Shown piece by piece: positions 27,766 through 36,800 of a DNA stretch of 64,000 nt (the first letter of the stretch is position 1; every line of letters starts with the position of its first letter). The position numbers were made by a program, and so were the translations under genes. Location: assembly GCF_032062105.1 (NCBI RefSeq), contig NW_026931074.1, positions 217,587-281,586 on the forward strand, written 5' to 3'. The notes beneath the pieces are model-generated. The model did not search any database. It was given only the letters and a program-made list of their open reading frames with translations, and was not told the origin of the DNA. This stretch comes from Saccostrea cucullata (Eukaryota).

Positions 27766-27800
<35 letters not shown>

Positions 27801-28593
27801 GCTTTGACCATTCTGTTCTTTACCAGATTTCCCCCTTGTTATACATAATGCATCCCCACCCTACCCCACTGATCATAATTTAGACATTTTGAAATCTACA
27901 CTACCCCATGATCCTTCCATGGGCACATATGTTTCAGCTTTTTTGGCCCAGTGGTTCCTAAGAAGAAGATTTTCAAAGATTTTTCCTATATATTTCTATG
28001 TAAAACTTTGATTCCCTATAATGGCCCCGCCCTTCCCCCGGGGGTCATGATTCCTATAATTTAGAATTTACACTACCCCAGAATGCTTCCACATAAGCTT
28101 CACTTTTTCTGGCCCAGTGGTTCTTGAGAAGAAGATTTTCAAAGATTTTTCCTATATATTTCTATGTAAAACTTTGATTCCCCATTGTGGCCCCGCCCTT
28201 CTCCCGGGGGCCATGATGTGAACAATTTAGAATCTACATTATACCAAGATGCTTCCACATAAGTTTCAGCTTTACTGGCCCTGTGGTTCTTGAGAAGAAG
28301 ATTTTCAAAGATTTTTCCTATATATTTCTATATAAAACTTTGATTCCCCATTGTGGCCCAGCCCTTCCCCCGGGGGTCATGATTTGAACAATTTAAAATC
28401 TACACTACCCCAGGATGCTTCCACATAAGTTTCAGCTTTACTGGCCGAGTGGTTCTTGAGAAGAAGATTTTTTAATGACCCAACCCTATTTTTGTCTTTT
28501 CTTGATTATCTCCCCTTGCGAGGGGATAGGTCCCTTCATTTTAACAATTTAAATTCCCCTTCACCCAAGGATGCTTTGTACCAAGTTTGGTCA

Positions 28594-28630
<37 letters not shown>

Positions 28631-28716
28631 GTGAAAAGTTTACAGACGGACAGACAGACGGACGGACAGACAGACAGACAGACAGACGGACGGACGGACG
28701 GACGACGGACAAAATG

Positions 28717-28762
<46 letters not shown>

Positions 28763-28763
28763 C
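27766..28763. mobile_element. MITE copy 1 (about 1.0 kb): TIR gctcacctgag/ctcaggtgagc, 4 internal tandem repeats of about 150 bp, and a (GACA/GACG)n tail
   Basis: The left end is caagaggcccatgggccacatcgctcacctgag. The interior holds four head-to-tail copies of ttcctatatatttctatgtaaaactttgattcccYattgtggccccgcccttcccccgggggtcatgatt... (27960-28480). These are followed by ctggcccagtggttcttgagaagaagtcgaaaatgtgaaaagtttacag and then the tract (gaca/gacg)n at 28650-28712. The right end is gaaaagctcacttgagccttcggctcaggtgagctaaaaac. A second copy lies at 32872-33811. This tandem-repeat core plus tetranucleotide microsatellite matches my recollection of pearl-family MITEs from oysters. ORFs 28456..28719 and 28536..28733 are artefacts of the microsatellite. 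Confidence 0.6.
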
Positions 28764-33668: not shown

Positions 33669-33712
33669 GCAGGTTTGGTTAAAATTGGCCCAGCGTTTCT
33701 TGAGAAGAAGTC

Positions 33713-33743
<31 letters not shown>

Positions 33744-33764
33744 AGATGGACGCCGGACAAAATG

Positions 33765-33810
<46 letters not shown>

Positions 33811-33811
33811 C
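32872..33811. mobile_element. MITE copy 2 (same family and orientation as 27766-28763), in the adjacent intron of the oxidase gene
   Basis: It has the same left terminus caagaggcccatgggccacatcgctcacctgag. There are about 3.5 tandem repeats of about 150 bp (ttcctatatatttctatgtaaaactttRgtcRgccattKtggYcccgccctaYccc.gggggtcatgatttgaacaaa). It has the same right module ggcccagcgtttcttgagaagaagtcgaaaatgtgaaaagtttacagacagacagacagatggacgccggacaaaatgtgatcagaaaagctcacttgagccttcggctcaggtgagctaaaaac. An additional partial tail copy lies at 33817-33880. Confidence 0.6.
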
Positions 33812-36800
33812 TGACAACAGAAAAATTTTGATCAGAAAAGCTCACCTCAGCTTTCAATTCTGGTGAGTTAAAAATTGTTTGTTTTCTCAGACTCTCACTT
33901 AACTATCAGACTGGCTAAAAATCATAATGGCCCAATTAACAACTTTATTTTAACCTCCAGGAAATCATGATTTTTTTTAAATTTACATAGTCATACACAA
34001 GTATGTTGAAATTTTCTTGGAAATATTTTTTCCAACTACCTACTGACCCCTTTTTTTTTAACCCAGATTAGGGAGAGAACCGGTGCAAGCAATTATTATT
34101 TACAGATGGCCTTATGGAAAGGGGTTTCTATTTAAAAAAAAATTATTTCGGACCTGCAAAAGGCAGTAAACATTTGTCTGGACCAATTACTTTCCAGAAA
34201 ACGTCATTTCAAATGACCATTTGAAAAAATTGATGCTACTGATCATGCTGATGCAAATTTATAAAAGGTGGGGATTGGGATGTGTAGCTGAAGATCACAA
34301 ACTCAGAAAAGATGGTTGCATGTACGACGTGGTGAAGATGGTCAATTCAATTTGTTACACAGGGATTTTCCACTACCCCGTGTAGGGCTGAATATGGGCC
34401 CCATTCCCAATTGTAAAACCCCTCCCTTTTTCCCAAAAATGAACTGCCTATGTTCAATTTTTGAAAGAAGAAGAACTCAAGAAGGTAACCTGAAAATAAT
34501 TCACAAAATACAAACATGTTTAGGTTTGGAAATTTGAATGAAATGAACAAAATTTTGAAGAATCTTGGGTAAAACTTTATTATAATGATCAATTCTCTAA
34601 TTCATAGTTCTGAATAAGTAAGTAAAAGATCAATTTTTATTCATCTTAAGTATTTATTTCCTGAAAAACATCATACAATAAAATATCCCAGTGATAAATT
34701 GTCATAAAATTCCCAAATCCAAGGGCCTGGGCCCCATTCCCAAAAATGATTGGAAAATCCCTGTTACAGCAACAGTAAGCAAAGACATAAAACTTGCTAA
34801 GTTATGACTCTTATAAAAGACTCTCTATCAATTGTAACAAAAAAACTTGCAAGATCAAAAGCTGTTGAAAAAAATAAAGGACAATTTGTTGCTGATACTT
34901 AAATTCTTTTCTCAGAGTCAAAATAAGGTGCATGTATCTGGTCTGATAAAAAAAAAAAAGAAAACGGTCCGCCATATCACTTGACTCCGTCAGATCAAAT
35001 GTGATGTACATCTAACAGTGATTTCGAGGAGTCTGATTTCCAATATTGAAATGCAGCAGCAAAGGCTTAAGCATTGGTCATATATACATCTACTCAACCA
35101 ATTTAATACTATAGAACTGGGGATCACTCATTTATTTCACATCTACTTAAATACATGGCAATACATATAAAACAGCACAGTGTCTGACAGATCTTGACAC
35201 ATTACACCTCAGAACTGACCTACATACACACAGAAACACATACAGGTATGACCCCAATCACATTTGGTGTGAAGGCCAGCCAGAGGCTCTCATGATACAA
35301 TATAACAGACTTTACCACAGGTCATATTCTGGCTCTCAATATGGTGCATTTACTTTTTTCCAAAATCATTCATACGGTAATACCATAGCTAACTGCCTAA
35401 CACATTTCAAGAATAACCTTGCCTTAGTATCTAGAACTTAGTATCTAGAGTCAATCAGAGATGCATGTGCATAATAATGAAAATGGCTCAAGAATGATGT
35501 TTTGGAGCACCAAATGACAGAAATCTGCTATTGTATTGCCACCTCATCTTTGATTATAATGGTTCCACACAATTAGTTTGTTATACATGTATATAGTTTC
35601 ATATTTTGTTAATATATTTTTTTTTGCACTAGTAATGAAATTCTATGGCTATTTATTGGTCCCAATGGATGAATAAAAATCATACAGCTAATTATTAAAT
35701 TATTAATTCCAGATTGTCAACATTTACTGGAAAATCCCCAAATTATTTTTAGCTATCTAGCTTCGACATTCACACATTATATCAAAGCGATTTGGAACAT
35801 ACTTATTAATCTATAAAATTAATTATGATGTCTGATGGAGAAAAGACTTAGGGAGCACTAGCTTGTAGCAAGAAGCTAACAAATTTATGGTCTGTTTAGC
35901 AATTAACATGTTTAAACCATAATTGTGATTTAATACACAAGGTTATTTCACCAGAAGTTCTGTTGAACTGCAATGTTAAATGCATGGTTAGATAAATAAT
36001 ATGTCACATAATTTACAAATGAAAAAAAAACCTCAGAATGAGATTCCCTCCAACAGAAAAAAAATCTATCAATCATTACAATTGGCATATACTGAATTTT
36101 TTAGTAATGGGGCAAATTCCTCACATTTTTCAACTTATCAGAATTGAAGATCTATGTTTTTCAAATCAAAGATGTGAAGTTCTGTAGATATCAGAGGGTA
36201 CCTGACAGGGCCAAATAAAACACATTTTAAGTCACTTCTCTGACTGTAAAAACTACCAAATCTGTCCAATTTAACACTACTTTTTCATATGTTATTCCTA
36301 ATAACTCTAGTACATCTATCACAATTATACTTGTTTGGACTTTGTCTTTTAATTTCTTTGAAGTGACAGTGCACCACATCAATGAATTCATCTTTTATAA
36401 AAGTGCAGGAAGAGTTTTTATTTTTAAAAGTTCACAAAGTGCGATCATCTCTGTCTTTAATCTAGGACCTAGTTTCTCTTTTATCTTCTTTGTTTACTCA
36501 TAGTTTAAAGTTGTTTACCAAACATTACGACATTACACTGAATTACACAGTATCTCCCTTGATGAATCAATACCCTGAGAGAATCCACTGACTACAACTT
36601 GCCTGTGGTTGGATCTGGATCATCAATATTTTACAGACACGGGGCAATGAAATTCTCTCTTTTGTCTGGCATACCACTGCCAGGAGTATAAAACTTCTAC
36701 TACAATCAGTTTTAAAGACAAATCTGGTACATAATTAAGTTTTTTCTACAGATCCCTACATGCCTCTAGCCAGTCTAGGCCTAGATCTTTTCAAAACAAA

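Follow-up and report, generated by a model that had tools for sequence, protein, structure and literature searches.

Two probable non-autonomous Helentron transposons with satellite-like repeats and a microsatellite in consecutive introns of a Saccostrea spermine oxidase-like gene

Non-autonomous Helentron transposons (HINEs), whose defining features, among them subterminal inverted repeats (subTIRs) of ~11-15 bp near both ends, were set out by Thomas et al. 2014 (PMC4067079), form the class that now holds both the Cg_HINE elements of the oyster Crassostrea gigas and the bivalve element "pearl", formerly a MITE and since re-categorised as a non-autonomous Helentron (PMC7492417). A Cg_HINE begins with a 5' subTIR of 11-12 bp, an IR 1-12 bp away and a GTCY microsatellite, continues through a variable segment of 10-500 bp and ~166-bp repeats, and ends in a right flank (RF) with a 3' subTIR and a palindrome; its targets are T-rich/TT, with no target-site duplication (TSD) (PMC7492417). 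Membership of the Cg170/HindIII repeat family is taken here as monomers of ~166-167 bp with at least 70% similarity to CL1/CL2/Cg170, the clustering threshold of the same authors (PMC7492417), and Thomas et al. 2014 assign two elements to the same Helentron family when their subTIRs are identical over at least 11 bp (PMC4067079).

The window, by which we mean the whole 64-kb stretch of DNA that was analysed, contains two elements (copies A and B) that are very probably HINEs, and that are additional Saccostrea members of an already known kind of oyster element, with satellite-like repeats and a microsatellite aboard. Both lie in one gene:

20881-37543, minus strand: host gene, a spermine oxidase-like flavin amine oxidase with five exons (mapping of transcript contig L002)
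37543-37135, 32363-31456, 25884-25750, 22827-22707 and 21891-20881, minus strand: host exons (L002, 98-99.5% identity)

The exons match Pfam Amino_oxidase (PF01593 and PF13450), the closest named proteins to them are oyster spermine oxidase-like proteins, and exon 2 shares 98.4% protein identity with Saccostrea echinata, in line with the preliminary description, which had taken the element as a hint of an oyster. An exact-protein look-up of the exon-2 open-reading frame returned no record. Because the transcript maps as five exons, the insertions fall in introns 1 (copy B) and 2 (copy A), the consecutive introns of an oxidase gene that had been proposed from the sequence. Copy A is made up as follows:

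27766-28763, minus strand: copy A, probable HINE, complete, 998 bp, in intron 2 of the host gene (exact termini, alignment to copy B)
28744-28756, minus strand: 5' subTIR, with its core GCTCACCTGAG at 28746-28756
28728-28740, minus strand: inverted repeat (IR), partner of the 5' subTIR in the left-flank (LF) hairpin (DNA fold)
28642-28711, minus strand: microsatellite of ~67-70 nt, (GTCY)n on the minus and ACAG/ACGG on the plus strand (Tandem Repeats Finder)
28472-28641, minus strand: spacer from microsatellite to repeat array, holding a degenerate monomer-like segment
27924-28471, minus strand: central array, 3.3 copies of a 166-bp Cg170/HindIII-family (CL1-like) repeat, 89% matches (Tandem Repeats Finder)
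27766-27798, minus strand: right flank (RF), ending in CTCTTG, exact in copy B

Copy B, in the same orientation, adjoins the remains of an older element:

32873-33811, minus strand: copy B, probable HINE, complete, 939 bp, in intron 1 of the host gene (exact termini)
33776-33804, minus strand: LF hairpin (5' subTIR and IR), identical to that of copy A
33732-33758, minus strand: microsatellite, a short eroded (GTCY)n of ~27 nt
33092-33563, minus strand: central array, 2.8 copies of a variant 166-bp monomer, 86% matches (Tandem Repeats Finder)
32873-32906, minus strand: RF with terminal CTCTTG, 3' subTIR at 32895-32906 (12 nt) and palindrome at 32878-32889
33812-33874, minus strand: 5' LF part of an older, diverged probable HINE (subTIR', IR' and start of the microsatellite), adjoining copy B upstream
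32835-32872, minus strand: LF of the older element resumed past copy B, an eroded microsatellite and GTAAACATTTCACACTTT (local alignment)

Read on the minus strand, which is their canonical orientation and the sense of the host spermine oxidase-like gene, each element reproduces the published HINE layout in the order and sizes of its modules. From 5' to 3' these are a T-string, an 11-13-nt subTIR, the IR, (GTCY)n, the spacer and the 166-bp repeats, followed in the 3' portion by a variable segment, the 3' subTIR, the palindrome GGCCCATGGGCC, CTCTTG and a T run. In copy A the 5' subTIR is preceded by a terminal G, TTTTT and A (28757-28763, minus strand), its core GCTCACCTGAG forms an 11-nt inverted repeat with 27788-27798 (100% complementary), and the RF comprises the 3' subTIR CTCAGGTGAGC at 27788-27798 and the palindrome GGCCCATGGGCC at 27771-27782. 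The microsatellite of copy A is built of GTCC blocks and GTCT blocks, and its spacer has ~74% similarity to part of the 166-bp monomer and 82% identity to the spacer of copy B. Copy B has a 55-bp internal duplication at 33042-33149. Coding capacity is limited to spurious 87-aa open-reading frames running through the microsatellite; an exact-protein look-up of the two spurious frames inside the elements gave no record, and a full-text literature search with the terminal motif strings gave no relevant paper.

The termini that had been reported as shared are exact. In the 64-kb window the left terminus occurs exactly twice (27766-27798 and 32873-32905), as does the right terminus (28728-28763 and 33776-33811), each with 0 mismatches and 0 occurrences expected by chance; the start of copy B, previously put at 32872, was 1 nt early. 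The 3' T run could extend copy A to 27763 and copy B to 32870, and the shared A/T runs bordering both elements leave an uncertainty of up to 3 nt at their ends. The subTIR pair GCTCACCTGAG / CTCAGGTGAGC is 11 nt long in copy A, 12 nt long in copy B and 100% complementary. The LF hairpin, whose 13-bp stem has a single mismatch and whose loop is 3 nt, folds as DNA at -12.3 kcal/mol (z = -5.8), a value that none of 200 shuffles equalled. GGCCCATGGGCC is a perfect 12-nt palindrome 5 nt before the end and is also conserved in unrelated contigs; it folds no more stably than shuffled sequence does (z = 0.21). The 5' T-string is 4-5 T long and the base 5' of it is G in all four Saccostrea copies; because of this G, a strict T|T target is unreadable at the 5' junction.

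Similar termini and cores in neighbouring introns could also arise by segmental or intragenic duplication of one intron piece into the next without transposition, as one gene holds two similar ~1-kb blocks, oriented alike and separated by 4.1 kb. The similarity, however, breaks off precisely at the termini, neither pair of 1-kb flanks is significantly similar (best E = 0.02, ≤35 nt), identity is 79% in the interior against 100% at the ends, S. echinata lacks copy A alone, with its flanks contiguous, and the same ends are present in unrelated contigs. The unrelated flanks and the empty site of copy A refute such a duplication, to which we give virtually no weight; the preliminary description had itself proposed the flanks as a test of the duplication, and with the flanks unrelated the reading as transposons stands, as does its claim of two same-orientation copies of one mobile-element family.

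The same LF was found in 39 unrelated metagenome contigs, several of them with the same RF 0.3-0.9 kb downstream, and these contigs (n = 39) have nothing but HINE sequence in common with the window. Searched for the RF with a strict regular expression, they yielded just one extra copy, and BLAST-guided inspection recovered eight RF ends, four of which come from complete copies with both LF and RF. T follows CTCTTG in all ten 3' ends (the two window copies and the eight metagenomic RF ends), and no TSD was found at the six complete copies, namely the two in the window and four metagenomic ones. The comparison of flanking duplications across copies that had been suggested for a MITE thus shows no duplication beyond the T run at any of these six.

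A classical cut-and-paste MITE, with short TIRs bound by a DDE transposase and a short TSD made on insertion, would account for the 11-12-nt inverted repeats near both ends and for the A and T runs that border the elements, and older papers called pearl and DTC84 MITE-like, with a putative AA duplication. Yet the inverted repeats are subterminal, set in from the ends by 7 nt (5') and 22 nt (3'), and the two ends are structurally unlike, with a 5' hairpin at one and a 3' palindrome at the other; at least 39 copies keep the bordering T run as a conserved part of the element; six complete copies lack a duplication beyond it; and the family has been formally re-assigned to Helentrons (PMC7492417). 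We therefore consider a MITE quite improbable. Of the structure first described, the tandem-repeat core and the microsatellite are retained, whereas the short terminal inverted repeats are not and the period of "~150 bp" becomes 166 bp, as Tandem Repeats Finder reports 166-bp arrays.

Orthologous introns bear on the same question. Copy A is missing from the S. echinata intron, where its flanks are contiguous and the empty site is AT-rich, and the boundary of the insertion coincides with the LF and RF ends and not with monomer ends; this is the sole clean orthologous empty site, with an intron divergence (~75-80%) that leaves the junction short of nucleotide resolution. Copy B has no counterpart in the S. 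echinata intron, which is too diverged or rearranged there for a clean empty site (2236 bp of unalignable sequence in the window vs 546 bp in S. echinata), and orthology resumes directly after the old LF fragment. At the orthologous locus of Ostrea edulis neither copy A nor copy B was detected. A and B are insertions into T-rich intronic DNA without target-site duplication.

The central repeats link both copies to the oyster satellites. The monomers of copy A share 89-91.5% identity over 165 bp with the C. gigas CL1 array scaffold39858:41110, and those of copy B 79-88% with the CL1 array scaffold39858:72473, in a comparison that, of CL1, CL2, CL10 and CL13, covered CL1 arrays from Supplementary Table S1 of PMC7492417; between the two copies the monomers are 72-84% identical. 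Monomers of both copies thus have at least 70% similarity to CL1 and a period of 166 bp, and as members of the Cg170/HindIII satellite family (PMC7492417) the core repeats bear out the earlier assignment to a pearl-type family. The likeness to Cg_HINE is one of description for the LF and RF and one of sequence for the central monomers. As this core repeat family also makes classical satellite arrays in oysters, the elements might be dispersed short Cg170/HindIII-type arrays seeded by recombination or extrachromosomal circles, with incidental flanks, but the arrays lie between the same LF and RF in A, B and independent contigs, in constant relative orientation, and the S. echinata insertion boundary falls at the LF/RF ends and not at monomer ends; we regard such seeding as very unlikely. 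A SINE, or another retroposon with internal repeats, would suit a small, non-coding, dispersed element, but a tRNA scan of 27000-34500 found no tRNA-like region, an Rfam scan of the same interval yielded no family above threshold (best E = 0.29, with a score well short of the gathering cut-off), and the elements have no poly(A), no simple 3' tail and no TSD. With both scans negative we reject a structured RNA and a SINE or other retroposon, the chance of the latter being negligible, and retain non-autonomous Helentrons.

The relationship between the copies differs along their length. LF nt 1-52 are identical in A and B (52/52), as are the last 33 nt, and the interiors are 79-82% identical. With identical 11-nt subTIRs the two belong to one Helentron family, and over the last 60 bp they agree at 43 of 55 aligned positions (78%), narrowly short of a shared subfamily. 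Because the ends are 100% identical but the interiors only 79-82%, A and B probably stem from different source copies or subfamilies, judging from their sequences. The tract lengths first given for the microsatellites, about 60 and 25 nt, are close to the ~67-70 nt (A) and ~27 nt (B) found here. They had been read as in-situ expansion, a claim we do not uphold: the tract is an inherited module of the element, and the source copies may already have differed in length. The gap between A and B may thus be inherited from the source copies or reflect expansion after insertion.

Copy B landed in the microsatellite of an older, more diverged HINE head. The older LF fragment has 80% identity to LF nt 2-56 of the element (first 55 nt), and with copy B taken out it aligns continuously to an LF; its continuation past copy B gives a local alignment score of 42 (300 shuffles: mean 26.3, sd 4.1, maximum 41). 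The third fragment noted at 33817-33880 is therefore real and part of a nested insertion, as had been suspected; it is the 5' head of another element, neither tail-only nor an abortive copy. The window holds a further related sequence:

2773-3024, plus strand: HINE deletion derivative, a 5' GTTTTTAGCTCA fused to spacer and partial monomer, without IR, microsatellite or RF

HINE-type ends were also looked for, and none seen, at a 149-bp tandem repeat (40957-41378) and a 33-bp array (14145-19814).

As the 64-kb window holds no autonomous Helentron (no Rep/helicase/endonuclease frame; only three open-reading frames reach 150 aa) and the literature links no autonomous partner to Cg_HINEs, we infer from knowledge of the family that the Rep-helicase-endonuclease of an autonomous Helentron would have mobilised A and B in trans. 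By the same analogy, transposition would be single-stranded and of rolling-circle type, with the conserved 5' hairpin/subTIR as the putative initiation signal and the 3' subTIR/palindrome as the putative termination signal. The tandem repeats and microsatellite would be passenger modules whose copy number varies by slippage or unequal exchange, and A and B would be removed by splicing with their introns and would leave the gene unharmed. The absence of copy A from S. echinata, the lack of detected copies in O. edulis, the perfect 52- and 33-nt termini and the nesting raise the speculative, on balance rather doubtful, possibility that the family has been recently active in the Saccostrea lineage, possibly with a functional autonomous Helentron partner and with HINE microsatellites as preferred landing pads. 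In that case the genome may still hold a working partner, of a sort not so far known to be tied to a bivalve HINE, and microsatellites serving as landing pads may build composite elements and seed satellite arrays.

Saccostrea thereby joins the oysters with pearl/Cg_HINE-type Helentron derivatives that carry Cg170/HindIII-like repeats into genes; the empty site of copy A gives orthologous support for insertion without target-site duplication, and copy B illustrates the nesting of a HINE within another HINE's microsatellite. The value is mostly one of annotation, as such sequences should be masked as non-autonomous Helitron/Helentron repeats and not as MITEs. Oyster (GACR)n microsatellite markers likely lie inside such multi-copy elements, which would account for flanking sequences in common and for weak locus specificity.

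Among known systems, DINE-1 and the HINEs of Drosophila, mites and mosquitoes (Thomas et al. 2014, PMC4067079) resemble A and B in their subTIRs, the IR beside the 5' subTIR, microsatellite, central tandem repeats, 3' stem-loop (putative in A and B), boundary T strings and TT or T-rich sites without TSD, a structural likeness that is not expected to extend to sequence; A and B lack the DINE-1 core sequence, and in mite families the 3' subTIR lies ~38-60 nt from the end versus ~22 nt here (PMC4067079). DTC84 has flanks and core repeats unrelated in sequence to A and B, and its repeat variants stand in a fixed order. The pearl elements CvA, CvE and CvG (Crassostrea virginica, Anadara trapezia; Gaffney et al. 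2003, as related in PMC3879986 and PMC7492417) are alike by description, with ~160-bp core repeats (up to ~six), a tetranucleotide microsatellite beside them, inverted repeats of 10-20 bp in the flanking modules and a core similar to bivalve satellites including Cg170; in those accounts they are MITE-like with a putative AA duplication, whereas A and B include the A/T run in the element itself and show no duplication. Cg_HINE group 1 (Cg_HINE_1/_2; Repbase Helitron-N2_CGi type) of Vojvoda Zeljko et al. 2020 (PMC7492417) shares with A and B the module order, the 166-167-bp Cg170/HindIII monomers (79-91.5% to the CL1 arrays compared), the LF GTCY microsatellite, 11-12-nt subTIRs with an adjacent IR, the 3' subTIR and palindrome, T-rich targets without TSD and occurrence in gene introns; the differences are that the host is Saccostrea and not Crassostrea, and that A and B hold two monomer variants behind identical termini.

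Both termini of the elements recognised in the preliminary description occur exactly twice in the 64-kb window, without mismatch and against a chance expectation of zero: the 33-nt left terminus at 27766-27798 and 32873-32905, the 36-nt right terminus at 28728-28763 and 33776-33811. They delimit copy A (27766-28763) and copy B (32873-33811), both on the minus strand in canonical 5' to 3' direction. In a pairwise alignment similarity starts and stops at the termini, and no significant similarity links the 1-kb flanks on either side, which argues against a segmental duplication carrying adjoining sequence with each copy. 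The tandem arrays noted previously were recovered with a period of 166 bp, not ~150 bp, and the microsatellite tract spans ~67-70 nt in copy A versus ~27 nt in copy B.

Repeats of copies A and B (Tandem Repeats Finder)
27924-28471, 166-bp array of copy A, 3.3 copies
33092-33563, 166-bp array of copy B, 2.8 copies
28642-28711, ACAG/ACGG microsatellite of copy A

Modules of copies A and B, in order on the minus strand
5' end: G-TTTTT-A
Module 1: 5' subterminal inverted repeat (subTIR) GCTCACCTGAG(CC), pairing with an inverted repeat (IR) 3 nt downstream
Module 2: conserved linker, 17 nt
Module 3: (GTCY)n microsatellite
Module 4: spacer of ~170 nt, including a degenerate monomer
Module 5: about three 166-bp repeats
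Module 6: variable segment
Module 7: 3' subTIR CTCAGGTGAGC, a perfect complement of the 5' subTIR over 11-12 nt
Module 8: GATGT, then the 12-nt palindrome GGCCCATGGGCC, then CTCTTG and a T run

When folded as DNA, the 5' subTIR and its IR form a hairpin of -12.3 kcal/mol (z = -5.8), whilst the 3' palindrome is conserved but, being so short, does not stand out thermodynamically. A true cut-and-paste MITE does not account for this structure, as the inverted repeats are subterminal, the ends are asymmetric and a target-site duplication is missing; a bare satellite array fails since the boundaries coincide with the left flank (LF) and right flank (RF), and a SINE since there is no tRNA or Rfam match. 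Copies A and B are non-coding insertions with the architecture of non-autonomous Helentrons (HINEs), located at T-rich sites without duplication and belonging to a multi-copy family.

A transcript contig of the host gene matches the window at 98-99.5% identity in five exons.

Exons of the host gene (transcript mapping)
37543-37135, minus strand, exon 1
32363-31456, minus strand, exon 2
25884-25750, minus strand, exon 3
22827-22707, minus strand, exon 4
21891-20881, minus strand, exon 5

Against Pfam, the exons hit Amino_oxidase and NAD_binding_8, and their nearest proteins are oyster spermine oxidase-like, in agreement with the oyster taxon suggested earlier; exon 2 shares 98.4% identity with Saccostrea echinata XP_061184283, 99.7% with transcriptome protein P0132 and ~95% with Ostrea edulis and other members of the same protein cluster. 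These identities place the window in a Saccostrea species distinct from S. echinata. Copy B lies within intron 1 and copy A within intron 2, the consecutive oxidase-gene introns originally proposed, and both are spliced out of the mRNA.

Other tandem repeats occur in and around the gene. A 34-bp repeat (ACTTTTCCCCATCCCTGGGCCTATCATTATGTAT, 4.2 copies, 22556-22697) sits in intron 4 directly beside exon 4, and ~1 kb downstream of the 3' end of the gene is a 5.7-kb array (14145-19814) of ~175 copies of a 33-bp unit with internal inverted symmetry, ATCACTCAGGATAAGACACTGAGTCTGTGATAC, the flanks of which show no HINE termini. Its S. echinata orthologue covers ~2.3 kb (23535-25828 of the orthologous locus, L001), so both species retain the minisatellite locus. 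A 149-bp repeat (3 copies, 82% matches, 40957-41378) continues as degenerate copies to ~41530, and its edges show neither a subTIR nor a hairpin of HINE type.

The flanks of copy A are contiguous in S. echinata (window 31150-28765 corresponds to L001 14594-16984, and 27759-27656 to L001 16993-17094), with a few AT-rich bases in place of the 998-bp element, an empty site which again speaks against segmental duplication. The intron holding copy B is rearranged, with 2236 bp in the window versus 546 unalignable bp in S. echinata, so copy B is absent there, without a clean empty site. As the orthologous 38.7-kb O. edulis locus contains no detectable copy of this family, gain of the insertions in the window's lineage is favoured over loss in S. 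echinata. Adjoining the nested HINEs in intron 1 is a 1.2-kb window-specific block (33881-35086), with an unrelated 546-bp block (L001 12106-12651) at the corresponding S. echinata position; these are probably other lineage-specific insertions.

The sequence beside copy B (33874-33812), previously considered a tail-only fragment from abortive or nested insertion, is in canonical orientation the head of another HINE, with a diverged subTIR, IR and linker (GATCAAAATTT...), the linker resembling the common metagenomic subtype more than it does copy A or B. In silico excision of copy B brings this head together with 32872-32835, and the joined sequence gives a continuous LF alignment that passes through an eroded microsatellite and on into GTAAAC-TTTCACA-TTT (downstream part: score 42; 300 shuffles: mean 26.3, sd 4.1, max 41). 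From this continuity we infer that an older HINE head was interrupted by copy B at its T-rich microsatellite; nesting thus stands and an abortive event is not needed. Orthology with S. echinata picks up directly past this old LF fragment.

Scanning metagenome contigs for the LF hairpin recovered 39 contigs (31-38% GC) carrying an identical 34-nt hairpin, from the marine sources OBLZ01, OCZB01, MOXF01, AACY02, Ga0066383 and Ga0115564. They have only HINE sequence in common with the window and are probably invertebrate, perhaps bivalve, host DNA. Their microsatellites are mostly GTCGTT- or GTCC-type, and many contigs terminate at the repeat, suggestive of assembly breaks. The contigs also yielded eight RF-like 3' ends related to CTCAGGTGAGCGATGTGGCCCATGGGCCTCTTG, and four contigs (L035, L028, L039, L038) hold complete copies, with an RF-like end 0.3-0.9 kb downstream of a complete LF. 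The metagenomic copies have a 5' string of 4-5 T and always a T after CTCTTG, and no duplication was seen in the host bases on either side. Two further copies were found in the window and in S. echinata, the latter placing the family in that species too, and the existence of dispersed copies is a third point on which segmental duplication fails. Neither of the two outcomes that would have contradicted the preliminary description, a lack of additional copies or a duplication extending into the flanks, was thus obtained.

Further family copies
2773-3024, plus strand, HINE deletion derivative: 5' GTTTTTAGCTCA joined directly to post-microsatellite spacer and partial monomer, without IR, microsatellite or RF
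L001 30314-30806, diverged HINE head (GTTTTTAGCTCCCTTGAACCAAAGGTTTAGGTGAG...) with eroded GTCT microsatellite, downstream of the orthologous gene

Copies A and B are 100% identical over LF nt 1-52 and the last 33 nt, yet share 82% in the spacer, 79% in the repeat arrays and 78% over the last 60 nt; adjacent monomers within an array are 86-93% alike versus 72-84% between arrays. By their identical 11-nt subTIRs they form one family, falling just under the 80% cut-off for one subfamily in the scheme of Thomas et al. Perfect ends around a diverged interior imply that the ends were under selection as the elements propagated and that the two copies probably came from different sources. The unequal microsatellite lengths are therefore not attributable to expansion at these two loci, and the in-situ expansion read from them earlier is unsupported. 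The blocks of (GTCC)n and (GTCT)n that make up the copy A tract show that slippage took place at some stage, without locating where.

By analogy with the family, a Helentron Rep-helicase-endonuclease would act in trans to move both copies by rolling-circle-type transposition using the terminal structures; none is encoded within the 64-kb window, and no partner has been linked to Crassostrea gigas HINEs (Cg_HINEs) in the literature. No specific description of Saccostrea HINEs was found in the literature searched. The bivalve pearl MITE has core repeats similar to Cg170/HindIII satellite monomers and has since been moved to the non-autonomous Helentrons (PMC7492417), so the preliminary family guess was essentially correct under an outdated MITE label. 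Against the genomic CL1 arrays of Supplementary Table S1 (PMC7492417), copy A monomers show 89-91.5% identity to scaffold39858:41110 over 165 bp and copy B monomers 79-88% identity to scaffold39858:72473. Both are well over the authors' 70% clustering threshold, so on these listed arrays the C. gigas CL1 (Cg170/HindIII) cluster already includes both variants. Cg_HINEs have an LF with an 11-12 bp 5' subTIR, an IR 1-12 bp away and an often GTCY microsatellite, a middle with a 10-500-bp variable segment and satellite-like repeats mostly of 160-180 bp, and an RF bearing a 3' subTIR and palindrome, and insert at T-rich or TT sites without target-site duplication (PMC7492417); the general HINE definition has the same layout (PMC4067079). 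With LF and RF likened by published description, copies A and B match Cg_HINEs module for module and are ordinary members of a known element kind.
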